Shown: positions 154 through 12,617 of the stretch, piece by piece | Numbering within the stretch: the stretch's first letter is position 1 | Layout: each line of letters opens with the position of its first letter | Assembly (NCBI GenBank): GCA_049510745.1 | Contig: JBEKYR010000073.1 | Coordinates: forward strand, 1 to 12,617 | From: Verrucomicrobiota bacterium | GTDB taxonomy: Bacteria; Verrucomicrobiota; Verrucomicrobiia; Limisphaerales; Palsa-1400 | Direction of reading: 5' to 3' | DNA: 12,617 bases | The notes under the pieces: model-generated | Seen by the model: only the letters and a program-made list of their open reading frames with translations | Databases searched by the model: none | What the model was told of the DNA's origin: nothing | Position numbers and translations under genes: made by a program

Positions 154-1845
154 CTATTCGCGAACAAAGTCCGCGATTACGGCCGGCACCGTCGTGTCGA
201 AGCCGACCACGTCCAGCATGCCGCGGTCGTTCGGGTCGGCGAGGGTGAAGCCGTTGGAGGTCATGCCCACAACGACCGCCTTCGCGTCGCCGACGAACTC
301 GTCGCGATACTGGCGCAGGGCCTGGGCCGGATGAATGTTGCCCGCCCACGTCTCGCTGTCCGTGTAGGTGACAAACGCCGACACGTTCAGCTTGTTGCGG
401 GCGGCCCACACCATTGGCAGGGCGCAATCCGTGCCACCCATCGGGATGGCTTCGATGCGCTTGATAACCTCGGCCAGTCTCATGCGCGGCGAGAGGTTCA
501 CGCGGGTGATGCCCGGTTCGCCGCCGCCATGCATGCCGCCGTAACGACCCTGTGCCGGAGCCGAGAACGCGATGATCTCGCATTCCGGTTCGGTTGCAGC
601 CGTGATCAGTGCCATCGCGGCGCTGCCTTCGCGGGCCGAGATGCATGAACCCGCGATCATCGAAGCCGCCATTGAGCCGCTCACGTCCAGCGCCAGCAGC
701 ACCGGCTTGTCGCATGGTTCCACGTTCTGGAACGTCGCGTAAAACGCTTCGTCCAGAGCGTCCACCACGGCCGACACTGGCGACCACTTGAGCGCGCCCT
801 TGTCGCCATGGCCCTGGGCGTAGATTTTCTGCGCCACAAGGACCGCCAGCGGGTGGATGCGCGCACGCCTGAGCGCCGTCTCGTCACGCAGCTTGCGGAC
901 GACCAAACGCTTGGCGTCGCTGAAGGGAGCCAGCAGACCGAGGCCAGTCATCTTGCCGAGGTTGCGGATCATCGCCGTCATCGGCATGCGTTCAAGCAAG
1001 GCTTCCCACACAATGGCTTCATTGAGCCACTGCGTTGGGATGGCTTCACGCGGCAGATCGAATTCGTTAATGAGCTTCACGATTTCGCCTGCGCTCGAAG
1101 CGCGCTTGGCCTGCTCGAAGGCTTCGATGAGCTTCGGCAGTGCGCCGACCGCGCCATACTTGGCAACACGGTCTTCACCGCGCACCTTGCGCTTCACTTC
1201 ACGCTCACCTAGCGAATCCGCGCCGGCCAGCAACCAGCGGAAGACCGATTCGTGCTGGGGCGACGGAGCCTTCGGGTGGGCAAGGCGGAGCAAGTCGCCG
1301 TGAGACCAACCATCGCGCTGCTGATACTTCACCGCCTGGTGCGCGAGATCATCGGCATCGCGGTAAACATACCAGTCGCCAACTCCATTGCGCAGACCAC
1401 GGCCCCAGCCGCGCATGGCGTTCACGTATTCAGCGAAGTGGAACAGATGCGTGCCAATGCGGCAGACCTTGTTCAAGATCGCGAATGCGTGCGCCTTCGC
1501 CCGGGCGTCACCATGGGTGACGGCGAGTGCCAGGGCGAAGATGGCCGGATCATTCTTGGGCGCGCGGCCCGCATCGCTGATCTCAACGATGCGGTTGACG
1601 GCGCGCACGCCATCCGCCTTGATGCAACGGACAATCGCCTCGTGGTTCTGCTTCACCAGATCGCGTTCCGTGATGTAATACGTGCCACCCTCGGCGCCAA
1701 GGATGAGGAAACGGTCAAGCCGCGTCCAGTCATCCACTTCCCAGGAGAAGCCGCCACCGGAGTTGCGGATCTGGGTCGAACCCGGGATCGGCTGCAATTG
1801 GGGAGTGATGCGGCGATTGAACTGACGTGCGTAGTTGATAGCCAT
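154..1845 (-). CDS. rsr: Ro60 orthologue (TROVE domain plus vWA domain), 563 aa
   Basis: N-terminal NSGGGFSW..LDRFLILGAEGGTYY, KYQQRDGWSHGDLLRLAHP, vWA MIDAS DVSGSM, GGTDCALP, TDSETW, C-terminal GMLDVVGFD; SD AAGGAGG at 1851-1857; adjacent Y RNAs. Confidence 0.97.
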   Translation of the reverse strand: MAINYARQFNRRITPQLQPIPGSTQIRNSGGGFSWEVDDWTRLDRFLILGAEGGTYYITERDLVKQNHEAIVRCIKADGVRAVNRIVEISDAGRAPKNDPAIFALALAVTHGDARAKAHAFAILNKVCRIGTHLFHFAEYVNAMRGWGRGLRNGVGDWYVYRDADDLAHQAVKYQQRDGWSHGDLLRLAHPKAPSPQHESVFRWLLAGADSLGEREVKRKVRGEDRVAKYGAVGALPKLIEAFEQAKRASSAGEIVKLINEFDLPREAIPTQWLNEAIVWEALLERMPMTAMIRNLGKMTGLGLLAPFSDAKRLVVRKLRDETALRRARIHPLAVLVAQKIYAQGHGDKGALKWSPVSAVVDALDEAFYATFQNVEPCDKPVLLALDVSGSMAASMIAGSCISAREGSAAMALITAATEPECEIIAFSAPAQGRYGGMHGGGEPGITRVNLSPRMRLAEVIKRIEAIPMGGTDCALPMVWAARNKLNVSAFVTYTDSETWAGNIHPAQALRQYRDEFVGDAKAVVVGMTSNGFTLADPNDRGMLDVVGFDTTVPAVIADFVRE

Positions 1846-1904: not shown

Positions 1905-1973
1905 ACTGCGGACAAGTTGGTGAATGTGGGGTTGGTCATTTGAAGTGATAACCCATGTTCTTCGGCCCGCAGT
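1905..1973 (-). ncRNA. Y RNA, minimal 69 nt, no tRNA-like domain (YrlB-like)
   Basis: 5' ACUGCGGGCCGAAG...UGGGUUAUC and 3' CUUGUCCGCAGU form the terminal stem with the bulged-C Ro60 site; resembles the metazoan Y1 5' end GGUCCGAAG..GUGAGUUAUC. Confidence 0.85.
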
Positions 1974-1987
1974 CAATGAGCTTGCGA

Positions 1988-2235
1988 TTATTCGCGGAAA
2001 AAAGTGATTCCTGAGAGCGCCGTCATATCGGCCGGTGCGGAGACAACATTTCTTAAAAGCTGCGTCCAGAGCCGCATGGGCACAGGTCGTTCCGGCCCAG
2101 CTTTTCGCTGAGTTCCTAATTCCCGTGAACGAGGCGCACGCCGCGTTTCACCTGTGTTTCGGACGGGAAACCCTTGCGACGTTTGCCGGTGATTTCGAAA
2201 CTTGAGTCTTCCTGATCGTGAGCATGGTTTGACAT
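1988..2235 (-). CDS. Small SEC-C (Zn-binding) protein, recoded or pseudogenised (in-frame TAG, +1 shift)
   Basis: SD GGAGG at 2240-2244, ATG 2235: [59 protein letters not shown]. The +1 frame continues [19 protein letters not shown]. The 3' end is uncertain. Confidence 0.75.
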
Positions 2236-2265
2236 ACGGCCTCCTGGTTTGAGTGTTACGGTTGA

Positions 2266-2290: not shown

Positions 2291-2296
2291 ATTTCA

Positions 2297-2422
2297 GATG
2301 GGCAAGGGACGCCATGGAATTACTCCTTGCGGAGGCTGCTCTACCGTTGAGCTACTGCCCCTTCAAGGGGGCAGATCGGACTCGAACCGACAACCGACGA
2401 TAACCCACAACTTCGGCCCATC
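2297..2422 (-). ncRNA. yrlA: Y RNA, YrlA type (circularly permuted tRNA-like domain)
   Basis: GAUGGGCCGAAG..UGGGUUAUC / CUUGCCCAUC Ro stem; T arm GUCGG-UUCGAGU-CCGAU, loop-closed acceptor-like stem, D arm UAGCUCAACGGUAGAGC. Confidence 0.92.
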
Positions 2423-2430
2423 AAATCAAA

Positions 2431-2819: not shown

Positions 2820-2896
2820 TGACGCTCCCGATGGGAATCGAACCCACGTTTCCCGGACTAAATCCGGACATTCTCTCGCGGTTGAACTACGGGAAT
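2820..2896 (-). tRNA. tRNA-like gene with UUA anticodon (ochre/amber suppressor-like, or pseudo-tRNA)
   Basis: Cloverleaf ATTCCCG/CGGGAGC, D stem GTTC/GAAT, anticodon arm TCCGG-ATTTAGT-CCGGG, T arm GTGGG-TTCGATT-CCCAT, G73, ends TCA rather than CCA. Confidence 0.7.
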
Positions 2897-2981
2897 ATCC
2901 GGCACCCTCCTGCTGAATGCAGCACGGATGTCGGACGCGGTCTGGTCCGAGACCAACCTAGGTTGCGCCTTCGGAAAGTTC

Positions 2982-3110
2982 AGATGGACAAGTGGCGTGA
3001 TCGAACGGAGGCACTCCATGCCGGGAATCGAACCCGGACCGCCAAGGCTTTCGCCACGGACGGTACGCCCTCCTTATGGTGGAGGATAAACGATCAACTT
3101 CGGCCCATCT
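2982..3110 (-). ncRNA. Y RNA with T arm and extra hairpins
   Basis: AGAUGGGCCGAAGUUGAUCGUUUAUC / CGAUCA..CUUGUCCAUCU stem; T arm CCGGG-UUCGAUU-CCCGG; additional GAAA-capped hairpin. Confidence 0.82.
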
Positions 3111-3114
3111 AAAT

Positions 3115-3440: not shown

Positions 3441-3515
3441 TGGCCCCCGAAGTTGGTATCGCGCCAACGTCTCCTCCTCTTCAGGGAGGCGCTAATCTGC
3501 CTCAGCTACTCGGGG
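3441..3515 (-). tRNA. tRNA-Phe(GAA)
   Basis: CCTCC-CTGAAGA-GGAGG; T loop CGCGATA; G73, CCA. Confidence 0.87.
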
Positions 3516-3626: not shown

Positions 3627-3772
3627 GTGGTTAATTGGGGCTTCAAGCCAAACCGCTTCGCGGGACGGAAAACGATATTCACCTTCCCGGTTGGCCGGAT
3701 TCGCATGGCGCGAAAAGGCTTGTAGCTCCTGCGAAAGAGCAATTGGCTTTGATACTGAAGAACGGTCTTCAT
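3617..3772 (-). CDS. Putative 51-aa basic small protein inside the tRNA array
   Basis: SD-like AAAGGAAAG just before ATG 3772; MKTVLQYQSQLLFRRSYKPFRAMRIRPTGKVNIVFRPAKRFGLKPQLTTVS; fills the largest gap in the array; the stop overlaps the tRNA-Ile 5' end. Confidence 0.45.
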   Translation of the reverse strand: MKTVLQYQSQLLFRRSYKPFRAMRIRPTGKVNIVFRPAKRFGLKPQLTTVS

Positions 3773-3970: not shown

Positions 3971-4046
3971 TGGCGCTGCCGGCAGGATTCTCACCTGCAT
4001 CGATCCGCTTAGAAGACGGATGCCTGATATGTTCGGCCACGGCAGC
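3971..4046 (-). tRNA. tRNA-Arg(TCT)
   Basis: TCCGT-CTTCTAA-GCGGA; T loop TGAGAAT; G73, CCA. Confidence 0.9.
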
Positions 4047-4053
4047 ATGGAAA

Positions 4054-4129
4054 TGGTCGGAATGGCAGGATTTTCACCCGCGGCCTCCCGGTCCCAAGCC
4101 GGGTGCTCTGAAGACTGAGCTACATTCCG
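4054..4129 (-). tRNA. tRNA-Pro(TGG)
   Basis: CCCGG-CTTGGGA-CCGGG; C1-G72, A73, CCA; T loop TGAAAAT. Confidence 0.92.
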
Positions 4130-4136
4130 TGAAAAA

Positions 4137-4212
4137 TGGCGGACCCGAAGGGAGTTGCACCCTCAACCCTCCCGCAGACAACGGGGCGCTCTGCTGATTG
4201 AGCTACGAGTCC
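4137..4212 (-). tRNA. tRNA-Asp(GTC)
   Basis: Loop TTGTCTG (U37); GGA..TCC acceptor, G73, CCA; T loop TGCAACT. Confidence 0.87.
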
Positions 4213-5370: not shown

Positions 5371-5973
5371 TCAGGCGACCGACTCCTTCCAGCGAGACCG
5401 CTGGGAAGGAGGCAAGTAGCCGAACAGGAGATCCATGCTTTCTTGGAAGGTGGTCTCAGGTTCGGCTTGCTGGCAATAGCGGTGGTACACTTCGCAGGCA
5501 TGGCGGCGCAGTTGTTCAACGGGCGCGGCACTCAAGCCGGCGTGGGCGAAGGTGCCGATGAGCATATCCAACAAAGGAACGAACTCGGCGTCGTCGAGGG
5601 GCTTTTGATCGTTGTAGCTGAACCAGTGATCGAGTTGGATTTTCCCGAACCGCAGCAAGGTGGTTTCCGTGTCTGTGGCCGAGTGGTTCTCGGTTTTGGG
5701 CGGAGGAGGGTGGATGATGGCAGTCTCCGTGGCACCGTGCAAAGGCGGCAGTTCTTCGGCGGGAAGGCGTAGCGTGATGCTTCGCGCCTGGCCCGGCACG
5801 CGAGAAATCAGCCCGCGTCGCTCCAGGGTCAAAATCATTTGATGCACGCTCGGAGGTGTGACCTGGAAGAATTGCATCATCTCCGCCTCCGCCGGCGGAC
5901 GCCCGTGCAGAGTGATGTAGTGGTTTATGTAGGCCAGGAACTGGCCTTGCCGCGAGGTATAGGGCGGTTTCAT
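5371..5973 (-). CDS. LexA-type winged-helix DNA-binding protein with unrelated C-terminal domain
   Basis: YTSRQGQFLAYINHY..GRPPAEAEM..F.VTPPSVHQMILTLERRGLISR.PGQARSI resembles the LexA N-terminal domain; no S24 peptidase domain is evident. Confidence 0.8.
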   Translation of the reverse strand: MKPPYTSRQGQFLAYINHYITLHGRPPAEAEMMQFFQVTPPSVHQMILTLERRGLISRVPGQARSITLRLPAEELPPLHGATETAIIHPPPPKTENHSATDTETTLLRFGKIQLDHWFSYNDQKPLDDAEFVPLLDMLIGTFAHAGLSAAPVEQLRRHACEVYHRYCQQAEPETTFQESMDLLFGYLPPSQRSRWKESVA

Positions 5974-6755
5974 AGAATGTGCGTCCGCTTCTGCGACCGC
6001 GTGTTCTTCCGCAACTGTTGCAAACGTTCCAGATTGTTGGCAGGCAGGTCGTAAGCAGCAGGGGCAAGCTGGACTGCTTTCTCCAAGACCTTCTGTGCCT
6101 TGTCGAACCGGCCCAATTCTGCCAGTCCCCAGCCATAGTCATTGAGCACCGAGCAGTTGTTGGGGTCATTGGCGACGGCCCTTTCCAGCCACGGCAAGGC
6201 TTCCTGTTTTTTCCCGGCGCGGCACAAAGCCCAACCCAGGCCAATAATAAACTCCTGCTCGCCCGGGCTGGCTGCCAAGGCGGCCTCATACAGGCGGCAG
6301 GTGTTGGCGGCATCGCCCGCGTCCATCAATGACTGGCCAGCTTTGTCGATAATTTTAATCCAATCCGTGGTCTTTGGTGAAAGCTGCGTCAATTGGAGCA
6401 GCAACCTCATGCCTTCCGCCTTGCTGCCGTAGCGATGTTCATAACAGCCAACTGTCAGCAAGGCAGGAGCATATTCCGGGTCAATGGCCAAGGCGGCAAA
6501 TCCTGGGGGCCACTCGGGCGCAGGCAATCGCTCGCCCTGAAGGCTGGCCACCGCTGCCCCAAACAGGCTGTCACTTATGCTTACATCATAAGCCCACTCC
6601 GCCGCCGCCCGGCGCTTCGAGGCGGGTTTTCGCGCGTAGTCGGCTCGGAGGGCTGAAAGTTCCGGGTCGCGGGCCAGCAGTTCGGCGAAGCATTGCATCG
6701 TGAGGATGGCTGGCTTGGTTCTGGCGGTTTTTTTGGCCATGCTTGGGCTCCTCAT
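5970..6755 (-). CDS. Tetratricopeptide repeat protein
   Basis: TPR-like helices (LGWALCRAGKKQEALPWLERAVANDP; YGWGLAELGRFDKAQKVLEKAVQLAP); 4-nt overlaps with neighbours. Confidence 0.85.
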   Translation of the reverse strand: MRSPSMAKKTARTKPAILTMQCFAELLARDPELSALRADYARKPASKRRAAAEWAYDVSISDSLFGAAVASLQGERLPAPEWPPGFAALAIDPEYAPALLTVGCYEHRYGSKAEGMRLLLQLTQLSPKTTDWIKIIDKAGQSLMDAGDAANTCRLYEAALAASPGEQEFIIGLGWALCRAGKKQEALPWLERAVANDPNNCSVLNDYGWGLAELGRFDKAQKVLEKAVQLAPAAYDLPANNLERLQQLRKNTRSQKRTHIL

Positions 6756-7303
6756 TGGCGGCTTTCATGCATTTCTTCCAGCTTGTCCACGAAGCGGGCC
6801 ATCTCTTCAATTTTCATGAGGCTGAAACCGTTAAGCCCGTTACCGTGGCGGGAATCATAATGCTGGCAATAATCCGCCGCCAGTTTGTAGCCGTGTGCGG
6901 GTGAGTCAGAATGCCAGAGATAGATGGCTAGCGCCTGCTCCACGAGCATCAGGTTCCAGTCATGGATGATGCGCACCGGGCCCCATTGCTGGTACTTGTA
7001 TTCATTTTGGAATTTCCGAAGCCGATCATGCAACACCTTTGCCAATTTACGGTCCATTTTGGGGGCGTACGGGTTCACGCCGGCCAGCAGTGCCCGGGCC
7101 TGGCGCAAAAGCTCAGCCGCTTCAACCCCGGTTTTGCCCTTGCCCGAGATGGCCCGACTCGCCACCCAGATGGCGAACGAAGGCTGCCGCCCTGCCAGCC
7201 CAAACCACTTCTTCAGGACTGTCAACCGGGTAAGATTTGCATTGCCGCGCGACCCGATCTCGGCAGAGATTTTCAGGAGTTTTTCGGAAATGTCGGTGCG
7301 CAC
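6752..7303 (-). CDS. Hypothetical protein (about 183 aa)
   Basis: Likely GTG start at 7303 (VRTDISEKLL..), just after the upstream stop; the longer 7507 start overlaps the upstream gene. Confidence 0.7.
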   Translation of the reverse strand: MRTDISEKLLKISAEIGSRGNANLTRLTVLKKWFGLAGRQPSFAIWVASRAISGKGKTGVEAAELLRQARALLAGVNPYAPKMDRKLAKVLHDRLRKFQNEYKYQQWGPVRIIHDWNLMLVEQALAIYLWHSDSPAHGYKLAADYCQHYDSRHGNGLNGFSLMKIEEMARFVDKLEEMHESRQ

Positions 7304-7322
7304 AGCCAAATGTCCCTGTTCC

Positions 7323-7847
7323 TCAGGTTCCGGGCGTGGCGTCTGGCGGCAGCAGGCCCATCTGTTTGGCCAGTCCCAGCGAGACCACGAATCCATTCGA
7401 CAACTGCACATCCGTGAATGTGTCCACAAAAGCGCGTCGGCATAGGCCAGGTTCAGAGTGCTGGTGCAAGCGCAGCGTTCGTTCGATCTCGGTGGCTTTG
7501 CCCCCAACCGTTGTCTTTTTCACCTGGAAAAAATCGCAAATCGTGTCGAAAGTCAGATGCGCCGGCTGGCTTGGGTCAAAGAGGAAATTCATCCGTGCGA
7601 TAACGTGCGTCACGGAGGCTGCCCAGACGGTCGGGTTGCCCCGGCGGCAATCCAGACGTTTTGACCGGCAGACACGCTTCCAGAGATCGAGTGCGAAGCC
7701 CGTCAACTCCGGATCCAAATGTGCCGCGCCGAAACTCGTGATGCTGGCTGACACTTCGCAAAAGCGCTCCTGTTTTTCCTCTGCCACCCCAGCACTGTGT
7801 TTTGATTCCGCACCGATGCGGGACGAGTCGTTTTGGATTTCATTCAT
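7323..7847 (-). CDS. DUF6398-like protein
   Basis: WAASVTHVIARMNFLFDPSQPAHLTFDTICDFFQVKKTTVGGKATEI motif recognised from memory; ATG 7847 avoids overlap. Confidence 0.7.
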   Translation of the reverse strand: MNEIQNDSSRIGAESKHSAGVAEEKQERFCEVSASITSFGAAHLDPELTGFALDLWKRVCRSKRLDCRRGNPTVWAASVTHVIARMNFLFDPSQPAHLTFDTICDFFQVKKTTVGGKATEIERTLRLHQHSEPGLCRRAFVDTFTDVQLSNGFVVSLGLAKQMGLLPPDATPGT

Positions 7848-7912
7848 GAGATTGATCCTACCAGTCTGCCGGGCGGGTTCAAGCCAGTGATGCCAATTCA
7901 GCCATCTATTGT

Positions 7913-8521
7913 TTAATTGCGGGCGATTTCCTCCGCGAGCGGACGCATCCAAGCGGACAATTTGGGAGCGAGCAACGCCAAATCCTTCTTGGTCTTCGGA
8001 TCCAGATCCCGTTTCAGCCGTGCCACATGTTGTGACATCTCTGGGCTGCCGTGCAGATGGCGCAATGCCTGAATCACCAGGCCCGCCCGTCGGCCCGCTC
8101 CGATCAGATTCCGCGGCGCGGCTCGCCGAAAGTCCAGTATCAACTTCCCCAGCGATATTCGGCGAGGCACACCGTCTGTCAAAATGACGATTTTGGCCGG
8201 AACTTGCTCAGATAACCCGAGCGCATTTGCCGCGTAGGCCCCGGAGAACTGCCATTGCGCGTGGCTGCCGTTCATCAATGCACGCACCGTGGCCATGATG
8301 TCCGGTGCCGTCTGGCCGATGATCGGGTGTTGACGAGGCAAATCGTAAAGGCCCCGCCGAATCCGGCGAATCCTGCCGGCTTTGGCCAGCCGATGCAAGG
8401 CCACCCCCACCGCCGAACGGGCTCCCAAATCCAGGAAATCGCCCGGCGAAAACACGCTGCCTTGCCGGCTTCTGCGAATTCGGCTCAAAACCCTCTTATC
8501 CATGGTTTGCATCGTTTTCAT
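7913..8521 (-). CDS. DUF6088 family / AbiEi-like type IV antitoxin
   Basis: VFSPGDFLDLGARSAVGVALHRL..G.IRRIRRGLY and SGAYAANALGLSEQVPAKIVILTDG motifs. Confidence 0.85.
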   Translation of the reverse strand: MKTMQTMDKRVLSRIRRSRQGSVFSPGDFLDLGARSAVGVALHRLAKAGRIRRIRRGLYDLPRQHPIIGQTAPDIMATVRALMNGSHAQWQFSGAYAANALGLSEQVPAKIVILTDGVPRRISLGKLILDFRRAAPRNLIGAGRRAGLVIQALRHLHGSPEMSQHVARLKRDLDPKTKKDLALLAPKLSAWMRPLAEEIARN

Positions 8522-8763
8522 AAGCGTCTTTGTAACAAAAACTAGCTAGTTTTTATTACAATAACAAGTCAATTTCACCTCGCATCAGATGTAGTGCCTG
8601 AACGGCAGCGGCGCTTTCGGCACGGCCGGGCCACTGATGAAAACTTCGCCTGCGGCATCAGCGAATTTGAGCGTCACTGGTACTCCGTCGGCAGAATAGA
8701 TCAAAATTGGGGCGCATCGTGTGGAATCGATTACGACTCCTGAGATGGTCCGTCTTTATCGCC

Positions 8764-9210
8764 TCATGCACCGCAACACTTTTTGAATTTCTTACCGCTG
8801 CCGCACGGGCAGGGATCGTTGCGTCCGACTTTGGGTTCGGAACGACGCACGGGCATCGCTGGCGCAGGGAGGGAGGTCGTCGGAAAAAAAGGCGCCTGTG
8901 GGGCCGGTCGCTGCCGGGCCAGAAGTTGAAGATTGTATAACGCCATGAACTCGTCCAGGGCATGCCGGTCGCCGAGATCAACGCCTGCTTTCAGGGCTGC
9001 CATCGCGAAAGTTTTGGCTGGTCCCCAATGGCGTTCATCCTGCGAGGCGGCAATGACTTCCGTATCCAATTCGGCCGCGGTCTTAGCCAGAGCGCGGGCA
9101 TTGCTCAACAAGCCCTTCTCCTCCAGGAAGATGAAGAACGCCGACAGCACCGGGGCCACCGCCTGGAAAAAGGCGAGTTCGGCTGACATTTTTCCGGGCA
9201 GAGTGCTCAC
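8764..9210 (-). pseudogene. SEC-C motif protein, probably 5'-truncated
   Basis: C-terminal [22 protein letters not shown]; coding-like only from about LPGKMSAEL; upstream sequence is not protein-like. Confidence 0.6.
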
Positions 9211-9311
9211 AATTGTCGGCAGTCGGCAGCGGCAGTCGCCCGGTGCCCTGTGCCAGCCCACAAGTTCGGCACTTGCTCCTTCCGGGAGCCTGGATTATTC
9301 ACGGTGAGACA

Positions 9312-9695
9312 ATGAAAACTGCCCCACCACGGGTTTTGTTGAAGACGAGCACCGACGAATTGTTTCTGCCGTCCCGAATCGTTTATCACATGTGGGACGA
9401 AAAGGAACTGGTGACCAGGCTGCGTCAATTGCGATGCATGGCGTTCGACCGGCCAAGGGGACGCTGGACCTGGAACTTCGAGCACGAAGCCAAGGCGATG
9501 GGCTTCCCGGCGATTTACGAATCCGGGCCGGCGGCACAGCAAGGGGTGATGCCTCAAGACCGGTTCAACCTTTTCCATCACCGCGTGTCCGGCGAGTCGG
9601 GCGTATCGGTGCGTGCGGCGACCATGCCCGCTAGCCTCGATAGTGCTCTTACCTGCCGGGCACCCAGCAATCCGGCGGCGGAAGAGCTGGATTGA
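9312..9695 (+). pseudogene. Hypothetical protein fragment (N-terminal part)
   Basis: MKTAPPRVLLKTSTDELFLPSRIVYH..WTWNFEHEAK looks protein-like for about 75 aa, then degenerates and runs into the convergent protease gene. Confidence 0.45.
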
Positions 9696-12617
9696 TATGG
9701 TACCCGTTGGTCTGCCATATCAGGTTTGCGTTCGTATAGTAGGCTGCCGGGACTGGACAGGGGGGGATTGGCCAGGGCCCGGTGGTTACATAAGCGTTTG
9801 AGTAAGCGAGGTACTCGCTCGTCGAGATGGTGTAGTCCGCATTGAGGTCTGCCGGATGGGGTGTGGCGTTCGTGGCGGAAAAGCCCAGAGCGCGATAGTA
9901 GCACAGCGGTAGGCCAATGGCCTTGGTATCTGTCAGGGTTATAACATTGGAGGAGGGGGTGATGGAGAAGATGGCACGCCAGGAGGCGAGGTTTGTGGAG
10001 CATTGAACCCAATAGGTGCTACCTTGGACGCAGTCGAGGACGAGTTGGACAGCCCCGTTTGCTAGGTGTTGGGGCGCGCGGAAGCATGCGGTAGGTGGTG
10101 TGTCGTTGTCGGTTATGGTGACTGTTGTTGTTGTCGGACTTCCCAAGGCGGCACCGCTCGCGCCGCTCAAGCTCACCGTGAAGTACTCGTTCCCTGAGTA
10201 ACTGCCCTTGTCGATGATCAGCACGTCCACGTACTTGTCCGCCGCGTCCCCATCCACCCAACTCAGCGTCCCGGATACAGCGGTGTAGTCCGAGCCGGCG
10301 CCAGCGCTCCCATCGGCCGTGGCATAATTGACACCAGCAGCACCATACGACCCACCGGTGCGATTGACGTAAATCCGAATGCTCCCCCCGTTCTCGTTTA
10401 CGGAGTAGGCGGAAGATGCGAATTGCAAGTTACCCCGTGAGGGGGGGGTATCGTTATCAATAATCGTCACCGTCGTTGTTATCGGACTGCCCAGCGAGGC
10501 GCCACTTGCCCCGCTCAAGTTGAGCGTGAAGTACTCGTTCCCCGAGTAACTGCCCTCGTCAATAATCGGCACGTCGGCGTACTTGTCCGTCGCATCCCCA
10601 TCCGCCCAACTCAGCGTCCCGGATACTGCGGTGTAGTCCGAGCCGGCTCCGGCGCTCCCATCGGCCGTGGCATAGCTGACACCAGCAGCACCGTAGGAGC
10701 CACCCGTGCGGCTGACGTGAATCCGAATACTGCCCCCGTTCTCGTTCACGGAGTAGGTGGAGGAGGCGAATTGCAAGTTGCCGGGCGAAAAGAAGGCTTG
10801 CAGGAATTCGTCCCAGTGCGTCGCCGCCGTGAAAGCCAGGTTCGCGGGTGTCGCGCTTTGGTTAATGTAATTATTGTAGGTGTTATAGGTGTTGAAACAG
10901 TTAGCGTCCTGCGGTGATCGCGGAAAGAAGATGCTCAGTCCGTAAGTGCCTTTGTCGAACCAGAATCCGTTATTCTGGGTGGCGCCTGAGTCGTTGGCGT
11001 GTTGTTCCGACACTAGGAATGGGCCGCCAGCGTTCCCAATGGCGGCAATAACGGAATTGGCAGCGGTTTGGACTCCTGTGACCGGCACAACCGCCACAAG
11101 TTCCTGGCAAAGGTCTCGCACATCCAAAAACATATTGCCTGGGTCCATAGTCCAACTCTCATCGTGGCAGAAAGCAAACTTCTGAGCATGATTCTGCGCG
11201 GTGGCTATATTGGCGCGATAAACCGCCGTGTTTTGGATGAGTGCCGAAGCCAATGTGTCTACCGCACTGGAAATCGTCGCCGCCTGTCCGGGGCGGGTGA
11301 CGGCGATCGTGCGTCCACCGGAGATTGCGGTAAAGTAGGTATTGGCGATGGCTTGGGCCAAAGCCTGAGAGGTTGTCGCAGGCGTTATGGAGGCAACGTA
11401 GGTCTCCCACGAGGGGTCGATGGCCCAACCTTCATTCTCTGAAGCGACCAAGTAGTCGACTGAGTTGCGAAGCTCGTAGTTTACTTCAATCATCTGCATT
11501 AAGCATGCATCCAAATGAAGCACCTCAAGATTGCGCCCCAGTAATGTCTTCACATGGGCTGCAGCGTTGCCGAGGTCGGCAACAGAAAGGTAGTCTCCGG
11601 TATCATCCCAGCAGATCCCAGTGGGCACCGGTGGCAAGTTTGTTTCGCCGACAACCGTTGGGGAAATTCCACCTCCATGGTCGAAGATGACTAATGCGTA
11701 GTGATCACCGCTTATTCCGGATCGAGAGATAACAAAGTCGGTAAAAGTGTTGATTGTGTTAATCGACCCGGTGTCGAACTCAGAACCACTCAGCCCGATT
11801 TGTGCTGGCGTCCAACGGTCAACCCCATCGGTGTAGTCATCCATGTTGCCATCCTGCCTAATTCTGAACACACGGTCCAGCCCAGCGCCCGATCTATCCA
11901 CCAACATAAAAGCTTGGATGTTGTCGTTCAGGTTGGCAGCCACGGTGCTGAACTTGGCCGGTATGTACTGGTCTAGGTCGGCCCCGCCGCCGGACCCGTT
12001 ACACATGTAGTACATTACGACCCACGTAGGCGTCTTTAGGGCAGTAAACTGGTTGAGTTGAGTGAGACTGTCCCATGGCGAACCGCTGCCAATGGTCTGC
12101 CAAAGGCCCCAGGCAACGTCGTAGGACCCCAGTGATCCAGAAGGGACATTATAGTAACGCGTCTGCGTTGAGTATCCCGACGGGACCGTCTTGTACACGT
12201 CGTTAGCGGGGTCGCTCAGCCATGTGGAAGTGCCGTTCTGTCTAATTGAACATCCTAGGCCGATAGATATGCTCGATGAATTAGGGTTGTAAATTTGAAA
12301 ATACACCGTGAGCTGCCCCCCTGCGGTGATCGTCGCTGGTGAGACATAGCAGTTGGCAGCGACGAGGGTTGGCGTTCCCGGCACAACCGTGATGGTCTTG
12401 GTGTAGGTGTTGTCCGATTCATTACTCTCGCTGATCGCGCCCGTTGAATCGGTGATTATTTCCAACGTATGCGTGCCCGCACTGAGTGAACCGACGGAAT
12501 AGCCGGTCACCGTCGTGTAGTAATTCGCGTTCAACGGCGGATCCGTATACCAGGAATTATTCAACACCCCATCGACGTACAACGCGGTGTAGAACCGTGC
12601 CGCCGTGGCCGCCGTGC
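9649..12617 (-). CDS. Extracellular clostripain-family (C11) cysteine peptidase with Ig/CARDB-like region and two Calx-beta domains; 5' end outside the window
   Basis: WVVMYYM, YALVIFDHGGG (catalytic His), LHLDACLMQMIEV (catalytic Cys), YLVASE, GLSIFFP; ESNESDN CARDB-like motif; the frame is open to the window edge. Confidence 0.9.
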   Translation of the reverse strand, partial: TAATAARFYTALYVDGVLNNSWYTDPPLNANYYTTVTGYSVGSLSAGTHTLEIITDSTGAISESNESDNTYTKTITVVPGTPTLVAANCYVSPATITAGGQLTVYFQIYNPNSSSISIGLGCSIRQNGTSTWLSDPANDVYKTVPSGYSTQTRYYNVPSGSLGSYDVAWGLWQTIGSGSPWDSLTQLNQFTALKTPTWVVMYYMCNGSGGGADLDQYIPAKFSTVAANLNDNIQAFMLVDRSGAGLDRVFRIRQDGNMDDYTDGVDRWTPAQIGLSGSEFDTGSINTINTFTDFVISRSGISGDHYALVIFDHGGGISPTVVGETNLPPVPTGICWDDTGDYLSVADLGNAAAHVKTLLGRNLEVLHLDACLMQMIEVNYELRNSVDYLVASENEGWAIDPSWETYVASITPATTSQALAQAIANTYFTAISGGRTIAVTRPGQAATISSAVDTLASALIQNTAVYRANIATAQNHAQKFAFCHDESWTMDPGNMFLDVRDLCQELVAVVPVTGVQTAANSVIAAIGNAGGPFLVSEQHANDSGATQNNGFWFDKGTYGLSIFFPRSPQDANCFNTYNTYNNYINQSATPANLAFTAATHWDEFLQAFFSPGNLQFASSTYSVNENGGSIRIHVSRTGGSYGAAGVSYATADGSAGAGSDYTAVSGTLSWADGDATDKYADVPIIDEGSYSGNEYFTLNLSGASGASLGSPITTTVTIIDNDTPPSRGNLQFASSAYSVNENGGSIRIYVNRTGGSYGAAGVNYATADGSAGAGSDYTAVSGTLSWVDGDAADKYVDVLIIDKGSYSGNEYFTVSLSGASGAALGSPTTTTVTITDNDTPPTACFRAPQHLANGAVQLVLDCVQGSTYWVQCSTNLASWRAIFSITPSSNVITLTDTKAIGLPLCYYRALGFSATNATPHPADLNADYTISTSEYLAYSNAYVTTGPWPIPPCPVPAAYYTNANLIWQTNGYHINPALPPPDCWVPGR
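10090..10782 (-). repeat. Tandem intragenic duplication of a Calx-beta domain (348-nt period)
   Basis: GNLQFASS.YSVNENGGSIRI...DNDTPP occurs twice (starting at 10782 and 10434) with high nucleotide similarity. Confidence 0.9.

Follow-up and report, generated by a model that had tools for sequence, protein, structure and literature searches.

A small SEC-C gene beside rsr, Y RNA and tRNA genes and its probable decoding by serial +1 frameshifting at UUU-pyrimidine

Results

The stretch of DNA analyzed here (the window) is a whole 12.6-kb contig (12,617 nucleotides; JBEKYR010000073.1) from the 5.6-Mb, 85-contig genome of a Verrucomicrobiota bacterium (GCA_049510745.1). On its minus strand, upstream of the Ro60 orthologue gene rsr, lies a mini-gene that comparison with its homologues indicates to be, in all likelihood, a real small gene of ~81 codons, predicted to specify a basic protein ending in a SEC-C type Cys4 metal-binding motif. 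The same comparison makes it highly probable that the ~81-residue SEC-C protein would be decoded in full only by serial programmed +1 frameshifting, through slippage of tRNA-Phe on UUU_Y (Y, pyrimidine). The parts of the mini-gene are listed below.

2240..2245, minus strand: Shine-Dalgarno (SD) sequence AGGAGG, 4 nt 5' of the start codon; the SD-ATG layout is kept in homologues
2235-2233, minus strand: start codon ATG, which opens the mini-gene open reading frame (ORF)
2056..2235, minus strand: segment 1 (codons 1-60, frame 0), consisting of 39 residues, TAG and 20 residues
2116..2118, minus strand: TAG at codon 40, in frame; AAG or AAA (Lys) in all homologues
2053..2058, minus strand: shift site B, with UUU at 2058-2056, then U at 2055; the 0-frame UAA is at 2055-2053
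1998..2054, minus strand: segment 2 (+1 frame), 19 residues, which completes the SEC-C motif with its third and fourth Cys ligands
1997..2003, minus strand: shift site C, UUU UUU C, where one +1 slip leads to CGC GAA TAA
1988..1996, minus strand: segment 3, Arg-Glu-stop (CGC GAA TAA)

A preliminary description of this DNA had located the SD sequence, the ATG, the TAG at codon 40, the TTT-TAA, the KKCC in the +1 frame and the RE-stop ending, and all of these positions are exact to the base. A +1 slip at site B brings AAG AAA TGT TGT (KKCC) into frame, and site C stands in the context CAC TTT TTT C at 2006-1997 on the minus strand. When the TAG is written as X and TTTT is taken as a single step, the recoded ORF comprises 81 residues, and the core of segment 1 is 94% identical to the homologues.

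Frame breaks recur at four positions across many phyla

DNA from 41 related genomes was searched, and a region covering the mini-gene was found in five others. All five relatives carry the site B break as TTT[T/C]AAG, and four of them have CAC TTT TTT C CGC GA at site C; the fifth, G028, reads CAC TAC CTC CGC GAC TGA and reaches R-D-stop unshifted. G012 and G028 also need a third +1 shift, at CCN TTT TTT C GAR close to the start, before the frame set by the ATG behind the SD sequence meets the conserved one. When one genome for each species was scanned for the pattern of the 0-frame core (48 residues), at least 583 loci were confirmed, of which the best 80 were used. Frameshift-aware threading against a guide protein gave 85 rows (84 loci and the window), representing 79 distinct sequences; L002, L003, L004 and L006 duplicate L013, L015, L070 and L057, and the counts leave out L001 (the window itself), L012 (a fragment with ~19 core residues) and L082 (too short). 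Carriers among the best 80 loci belong to Verrucomicrobiota, Acidobacteriota, Planctomycetota, Pseudomonadota, Dehalococcoidia, Deinococcales and other groups, the Pseudomonadota being represented by the isolates Massilia pinisoli, M. horti, Telluria antibiotica, Pseudoxanthomonas wuyuanensis and P. daejeonensis, and by Lysobacter sp.

No row could be threaded without a shift: one shift was needed in 1 row, two in 64, three in 19 and four in 1. Of the 190 shifts, 189 sit on an in-frame TTT whose next base is T (75) or C (114), and none falls at TTTA or TTTG. Shift placement was identical whether shifts were allowed anywhere or a four-base step at TTT was made cheaper. The breaks occupy four recurrent positions. 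Site B, before K-x-CC, is found as TTT[T/C] in 76/85 rows, and site C, before the final R[ED]-stop, in 59/85, plus one extra adjacent site; the rows lacking site C have an in-frame TAC TTC or TAC CTC and the same R[ED]-stop end. A site between G-x-F and DG occurs in 13 rows, and an N-terminal site before EITS in ~40, a count that hinges on the choice of start codon and includes at least one doubtful call (L032). The C-terminal ending fRE-stop is present in 44/79 distinct sequences, and R[ED]-stop or a close form in most others.

Codon positions 1/2/3 had entropies of 0.36/0.28/1.27 upstream of site B, 0.64/0.57/1.35 from site B to site C, and 0.33/0.42/1.38 over the final three codons. This third-position periodicity in all three segments indicates that each is translated, in frames connected by the shifts. 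Taken together, these observations uphold the proposal in the preliminary description of a recoding-dependent product arising by +1 slippage at UUU-UAA and by a second +1 slip in the T-run, since the breaks are kept across many phyla with coding constraint on both sides. The description had also suggested looking for a conserved TTT-N break in homologues; the break is conserved, specifically at UUU-pyrimidine in every row but one (L083), and neither frameshift is a lesion peculiar to this genome.

Protein databases reflect the same breaks. A word-indexed protein search with a recoded homologue returned 1922 proteins, mostly 60-residue forms ending in ...GSGRSF, which carry the label 'YecA (UPF0149)' in one source. 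A profile search of 1.84 billion cluster representatives returned 866 at E <= 1e-10, and these matches end at profile positions 62, 72 or 81, corresponding to the three downstream shift sites. Among 260 database proteins examined, 241 contained the core; two singletons, P0005 and P0070, were the only ones fully in frame, the former by a compensating indel that garbles GSG and the latter with one extra residue.

The recoded product contains a complete SEC-C motif

The recoded product matched the Pfam SEC-C family (PF02810) with 39.0 bits, above the gathering cut-off of 20.4, with residues 48-66 aligned to positions 1-19 of the 19-position profile. This match crosses the frame break at codon 60, and the full-length profile is matched only across the shift. 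The ligands C51, C53, C63 and C64 (C-x-C-x8-C-C/H) are united in one chain only after the +1 shift at codon 60, giving the motif GRND-x-CPCGSG-x3-K-x-CC. The 0-frame product, to which translation would be limited if the first slip failed, ends at residue 60 with only the first two of the four Cys ligands. The complete motif is the feature that the recoded product shares with the SEC-C domains of the SecA C-terminus, YecA and YchJ, and the matches to solved structures were a YchJ-C peptide (9l6b_C, 5.4e-07) and a SecA zinc-finger peptide (1sx0_A, 4.4e-05).

The N-terminal 45 residues had no match to a Pfam or NCBIfam family. Identity with YecA/UPF0149 was considered and rejected: the best NCBIfam scores were 29-33 bits against cut-offs of 140-158 and covered the last ~22 residues only. 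All NCBIfam matches were below cut-off and restricted to the motif, and the product lacks the YecA body despite the database label. An AlphaFold2 model, built from an alignment of 16 natural database proteins with P0008 as its first row, had a mean predicted local distance difference test score (pLDDT) of 55.2 and a predicted TM-score of 0.36; the SEC-C part alone reached pLDDT 73-76.

Shift sites follow a two-part rule

The base after the in-frame TTT is related to the codon that would have been read in the old frame. With T as the fourth base, this codon is TAA in 35 sites, TGA in 22 and TAG in 16, that is, a stop in 73 of 75 sites; with C as the fourth base, it is CCG in 43, CAA in 34, CGA in 29 and CAG in 6. 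Across the 79 distinct sequences, whose kin are not independent of one another, T was chosen in 66/68 cases where T makes a stop, and C in 41/43 cases where T would give a sense codon. The kinship makes the p-value of this comparison overstate the effect. A 0-frame stop in the A site is present at site B of the window (UAA) and absent at its site C (CCG) and at the 114 C-type sites. Phe codons that are read normally comprise 187 TTC and 26 TTT-purine, and only 7 TTT-pyrimidine codons lie outside a shift heptamer.

A strict rule, in which UUU plus pyrimidine always counts as four bases, leads from an SD-preceded start to the conserved stop in 74/85 rows. Two of these successes, L007 and L083, are reached by the wrong path, leaving 72 that are genuine, and L037 needs two adjacent steps. 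Among the 11 failures, 4 are due to a TTT-C in KGFPSE, 3 to the C-terminal T-run, and 4 are trivial (the TAG in the window, missing upstream sequence, a start lacking an SD sequence, and a longer tail). Because some UUU_Y codons are read normally, shifting is not obligatory at every UUU_Y, and this pattern would fit slippage below full efficiency better than a dedicated quadruplet reader.

These features suggest a mechanism in which, where U or C follows an in-frame UUU, the P-site peptidyl-tRNA-Phe (anticodon GAA) would slip +1 onto UUU or UUC. Where the fourth base is U, the slip would be favored by a stop codon (UAA, UGA or UAG) in the old-frame A site. Where it is C, the new pairing with UUC would be fully cognate, and the old-frame codon (CCG, CGA or CAA/CAG) would be one that is slowly read. 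Two slips would be needed in the window, at UUU_UAA (2058-2053) and UUU_UUU_C (2003-1997), and one to four in the relatives, at the four recurrent positions. With sites in series, full-length output would be a steep function of frameshift propensity.

Several observations weigh against this mechanism. The sole non-UUU break, TTC AAG [G] AAT TGT TGT in L083 (a Lysobacter sp. isolate; core ~5998-6141), marks either a decayed copy or a different site type. The 7 TTT-pyrimidine codons noted above, 5 of them at KG-F-PSE and the others in TTT TTC of L063 and L066, have to be read normally, and L029 needs one slip where the strict rule predicts two. No SD-like stimulator is conserved: at site B one was seen in 30/70 distinct sequences (25 at 6-nt spacing), and SD-like tetramers occur at site C in 8/54, at the N-terminal site in 5/37 and at the G-F-DG site in 0/12. 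RNAalifold, applied to 14 diverse sequences that ran from site B beyond the stop codon, returned 4 pairs, none compensatory, at -1.33 kcal/mol. With neither an SD-like nor a structural stimulator found, slippage may be inefficient or conditional, and two to four serial unstimulated slips should give a very low yield. The best 80 of at least 583 loci are, moreover, skewed toward close relatives, kin are not independent, and the window's own copy contains a TAG.

Alternative explanations for the frame breaks

Two of the alternatives assign the shifts to a special tRNA, and the first of them involves a tRNA array in the window.

4468-2821, minus strand: tRNA array, 11 genes detected by ARAGORN and further ones by Rfam
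3441..3515, minus strand: array tRNA-Phe(GAA), anticodon loop CUGAAGA, with G37 replacing the bacterial A37

The tRNA-Phe of the array could drive the shifts, being shift-prone without a bulky ms2i6A37, in which case decoding would be efficient only when the array is expressed. The housekeeping tRNA-Phe (contig C49) has the loop CUGAAAA, G37 is found in 27/34 array tRNA-Phe genes adjoining homologues, and 47/85 rows lie among at least three tRNA genes. A passage of the Atkins review holds that elaborate modification of base 37 of tRNA-Phe may inhibit +1 shifting at UUU_U, and by that argument G37, unusual in bacteria, could favor +1 slippage. Against this, no tRNA gene is present in the flanks of 27/85 rows, A37 is found in 6/34 array copies, and the mean number of shifts needed is 2.4 in array-less genomes compared with 2.1 in array loci. 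Five array-less genomes carry canonical A37 tRNA-Phe (5/5), BLAST for the array type giving one 19-nt match only; a dedicated tRNA is therefore not required. We consider it improbable that the G37 tRNA-Phe is the driver; it would be at most an accessory booster rather than the general mechanism. The suggestion of the preliminary description that decoding is tied to the tRNAs of the same operon is correspondingly weakened by the array-less carriers, and by the presence of its other candidate, a tRNA(UUA), in only 5/85 rows, although the frequency of G37 leaves room for an accessory role. True quadruplet decoding, in which a tRNA with an anticodon loop of 8 nt would take UUUY as a single Phe codon, would account for the success of the four-base rule in 74/85 rows (72 by the right path), and yet we regard it as very unlikely. 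Neither in the window nor in the flanks of the 85 loci did ARAGORN detect an expanded-loop tRNA that could pair with UUUY, whole genomes of carriers being searched for tRNA-Phe only by BLAST with two tRNA-Phe queries, and the odd-loop tRNAs that were called have other anticodons (tcga, gcaa, ta, gc, ac, ca and gt). The four-base rule also breaks the frame at TTT-C in KGFPSE in L025, L044, L053, L081 and L007, and again in L029, L063 and L066, and array-less genomes carry the gene as well.

The other two alternatives place the break in the DNA itself or repair it in the mRNA. A decaying pseudogene, or an error of sequencing or assembly at homopolymers, might be suspected from the window's TAG, common to no relative, from copies that are plainly decayed, such as the one on a Manganitrophus plasmid, and from annotation pipelines, which call only the 60-residue stump. 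The breaks, however, fall at the same four positions in 85/85 rows, which represent many phyla and assemblies; they include TTTC sites, where there is no homopolymer; and coding periodicity extends through every segment to an R[ED]-stop ending kept in the final frame. Contigs of four public sequencing runs, comprising three DNA runs and one RNA library, were aligned to 1880-2450, and in none is there an indel at 2055-2058 or 1997-2003. As an account of the frame breaks, decay or error is thus highly improbable. This alternative, which the preliminary description had itself named, fails for the two frameshifts, recurrent and constrained as they are, and holds for the TAG, which is unique and polymorphic. 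Restoration of the frame in the mRNA by transcriptional slippage or RNA editing could be imagined at site C, a run of six T. It has very little to recommend it elsewhere, as the T-run is only three long at the 114/189 sites that read TTTC and four long at site B of the window. Runs known to be slippery in transcription, a topic of the Atkins review, are far longer than three or four T. In addition, the RNA-library contig (1939-2082) spans both sites ungapped, a weak point in that it comes from a close relative with 3 differences and may reflect DNA carry-over. We rate this alternative as scarcely credible, and serial +1 slippage of tRNA-Phe remains the reading that we prefer.

The TAG at codon 40 is not conserved

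The preliminary description had included programmed read-through of the TAG at codon 40 and a check of its conservation, and here the comparison goes the other way. The TAG is not conserved: codon 40 is AAG or AAA (Lys) in 84/84 other threaded rows. Among the aligned contigs from the public runs, X2, which may be the run behind the window, and X6 carry the TAG allele, and the X6 contig covering 1880-2130, from a different study, shows zero differences from the window. At position 2118 the AAG allele is read in X8 by 4/4 contigs that span the site, and in X2 by a single minority contig. Because it is unique to this lineage and polymorphic, the TAG is probably a nonsense allele segregating in peat metagenomes rather than a conserved recoding signal. 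For the TAG alone, a pseudogene reading is the most likely, and the window's copy is probably inactive unless the codon is suppressed.

A candidate suppressor was considered in this connection.

2821..2897, minus strand: tRNA-like gene with anticodon UUA (ochre-suppressor type), detected by ARAGORN; Rfam tRNA 41.7 bits

A tRNA(UUA) lies near the gene in the window and in L004, L070, L022 and L063, and the other four rows have no stop at codon 40; suppression of the TAG by this tRNA finds no support here.

Comparison with known frameshifting systems

At prfB (CUU_UGA_C) a P-site tRNA slips +1 and re-pairs with a cognate or near-cognate codon that overlaps the first, the A site being occupied by a 0-frame stop; the same would apply here at nearly all sites with U as the fourth base. 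The break is likewise conserved across phyla with both frames under coding constraint. The prfB-type consensus YTT_TRA_C, as given in the relevant part of PMC3711429, includes UUU_UGA_C, which is the G-F-DG site (TTT TGA C) of some relatives. A P-site codon able to re-pair (YUU_U) is found at UUU_U (2058-2055) and at UUU_UUU_C (2003-1997). The prfB site, however, has an SD-like stimulator 3 nt upstream, whereas none is conserved in the mini-gene family; prfB has a single site with a stop, whereas the family has one to four sites, 114/189 of them stopless (UUU_C); and the product of prfB is a release factor, whereas that of the mini-gene is not, and an autoregulatory logic is not evident. Lacking the SD stimulator and any evident release-factor logic, the mini-gene is not a member of the prfB system.

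The stopless sites have other precedents. The argI error frameshift of E. coli, a +1 shift at UUU plus pyrimidine, is described in a section of the Atkins review, and the Yersinia YopN-TyeA fusion arises by +1 shifting at UUU_Ynn according to a passage of PMC4914553. These sources, as far as they treat the two cases, describe the same tetranucleotide, the same +1 direction and no need for a stop codon, and in the mini-gene an in-frame UUU followed by a pyrimidine stands at the frame change. In contrast, the argI shift is a low-level error and YopN-TyeA a single-lineage fusion of separate proteins, whereas the sites of the mini-gene would be obligatory and serial and occur in many phyla. Thus the mini-gene would appear to act like prfB at UUU-stop sites and like argI or YopN-TyeA at the others.

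In Euplotes the shift site is AAA_UAA. Euplotes genes can resemble the mini-gene in having multiple +1 sites per gene, typically a codon followed by a stop, and are treated as a special case in the portion of the Atkins review that mentions them; their shifting, however, reflects an altered termination system and is eukaryote-wide, whereas that of the mini-gene would be gene-specific in bacteria with standard termination. The influenza A PA-X cassette UCC_UUU_CGU, also given in a passage of the Atkins review, shares a P-site UUU followed by a slow Arg codon that begins with C. The N-terminal sites of relatives read TCC TTT TGA, TGC TTT CGA or CCG TTT TTT CGA. PA-X differs from the mini-gene in being a viral gene translated on eukaryotic ribosomes, with one low-efficiency site and an alternative product.

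A possible sensor of translational state

Since serial sites would give a steep output and the gene occurs in an RNA-repair context, we infer that it may serve as a gate or sensor of translational state within Rsr/Y RNA/RtcB operons and mobile tRNA-array islands. In its fuller form this idea is tentative, and we think it rather unlikely: frameshifting would gate a sensor in RNA-repair operons and tRNA-array islands, with the full-length zinc-motif protein appearing only upon perturbed decoding and in a switch-like manner. Possible triggers would be depleted or damaged tRNAs for the old-frame codons, limiting release factors, and a hypomodified or island G37 tRNA-Phe; the protein might then act on the ribosome or on RNA repair.

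To our knowledge, conserved productive +1 frameshifting in bacteria is known essentially from prfB. No account of a frameshifted SEC-C gene, nor of a bacterial gene present in many phyla whose family as a whole relies on obligatory UUU_Y sites in series, was found in the literature covered, which included the main text of PMC3711429 and excluded subscription journals. If the sensor reading is correct, the mini-gene would be the second phylum-spanning programmed +1 frameshift gene of bacteria after prfB, and the first with several sites; if its output is gated by translational stress, it would be a directly testable sensor linking decoding fidelity to RNA repair. The family would also constitute a phylogenetically replicated set for the study of UUU_Y shifting, with the A-site codon, tRNA-Phe base 37 and release-factor supply as variables. 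Frameshifts would explain the thousands of 60-residue 'YecA' stumps in databases, and the gene points to an unrecognized component of Rsr/Y RNA/RtcB operons and of horizontally moving tRNA arrays.

Genomic context

The neighborhood of the mini-gene contains the following further features.

154..1845, minus strand: rsr (Ro60 orthologue), the next gene downstream; Pfam TROVE 3.5e-46, vWA_Ro60 2.1e-60
1905..1974, minus strand: Y-RNA-like stem GGGCCGAAG...GGGUUAUC...UUGUCCGC; Rfam RF01656 (nematode stem-bulge/Y-like RNA) 38.2 bits, gathering 38
2296..2425, minus strand: YrlA-type Y RNA with tRNA-like domain; Rfam YrlA partial 2335-2398, 35.5 bits, below gathering 69
2978-3111 and 2564-2678 (tRNA-like part 2492-2619), minus strand: further Y-RNA-like elements, Rfam, below gathering
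5371-5973, minus strand: LexA-type DNA-binding protein
7323-7952, minus strand: DUF6398
7913-8521, minus strand: DUF6088/AbiEi-like
8764-9261, minus strand: uninterrupted second SEC-C protein, 165 residues

The window contains an Rsr/Y RNA module, that is, a Ro60 orthologue with TROVE and vWA parts and adjacent Y RNA. The mini-gene sits between the elements at ~2425-2296 and 1974-1905: the YrlA-type element, whose closing stem GAUGGGCCGAAG/CUUGCCCAUC was read by eye, lies directly 5' of it, and the Y-RNA-like stem, which is kept after the gene in homologues, directly 3'. Four Y-RNA-like modules are interleaved with tRNAs 5' of rsr, three of which match Deinococcus Y RNA/YrlA models below gathering. 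Across the family, rsr or rtcB is found in the flanks of 51/85 rows (rsr in 36, rtcB in 26, both in 11), co-oriented in 63/63 matches, while 18/85 rows have neither gene and do not lie among at least three tRNA genes. Other neighbors in the family include integrases, NADAR with an ADP-ribosylglycohydrolase, and a SIR2 gene.

The gene is patchy, full-length matches having been found in 2/301 genomes of a phylum sample, where the other 19 matches covered the generic SEC-C part only. Its 48-residue core is identical, at 100% to the query, in metagenome-assembled genomes (MAGs) labeled as different phyla (L013, Verrucomicrobiae; L014, Terracidiphilus of the Acidobacteriota). Patchiness and identical cores across phylum labels fit horizontal movement; the cross-phylum identity suggests that an island was recently transferred horizontally, that small contigs were mis-binned, or both. 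The best matches also included MAGs labeled Saccharimonadales, Bifidobacteriaceae, Klebsiella and Akkermansia. A phage collection gave no match, viral contigs gave one locus (L093), which has the N-terminal site and the G-F-DG site, and a plasmid collection gave two records, both from Candidatus Manganitrophus. The copy on the Candidatus Manganitrophus plasmid CP114562.1 (L109, H1; 4001-4156) is decayed and unannotated, with a TGA within GSG and Cys residues lost, and lies between a tyrosine integrase and a SIR2/ATP-binding gene pair.

Most tRNA genes of the window's array encode their own CCA; that for tRNA(UUA) does not, and it also has an A1-C72 mismatch. Non-canonical anticodon loops in the array, besides that of tRNA-Phe (G37), include those of tRNA-Arg(GCG) (C33) and of an Ile(GAU)-like tRNA at 3626-3556 (C33), which was detected by Rfam and missed by ARAGORN; odd anticodon loops also recur in the arrays of related loci. 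Within the array, flanked by tRNA-Ser and the Ile-like tRNA, is a 47-codon ORF (MKTVLQYQSQLLFRRSYKPF...) at 3630-3771 on the minus strand. The element AAGGAAAG, which is rich in purines and resembles an SD sequence, precedes this ORF by a few nt, and no Pfam match was obtained when the ORF was tested within a longer one of 117 residues. Contig C74 of genome G000 (L095) holds a second related array at ~7000-11300, with tRNAs for Ala, Pro, Arg, Asn, Phe (the same G37 sequence), Thr, Cys and Arg. This second array, which could represent a second island or a co-binned strain, is without the mini-gene and most of rsr, and stretches of it share 83-98% identity with the array in the window. On the far side of the array, the window carries a run of genes of mobile or defense-like flavor at 5371-9261 on the minus strand, which includes, with the last four features listed above, a TPR protein.

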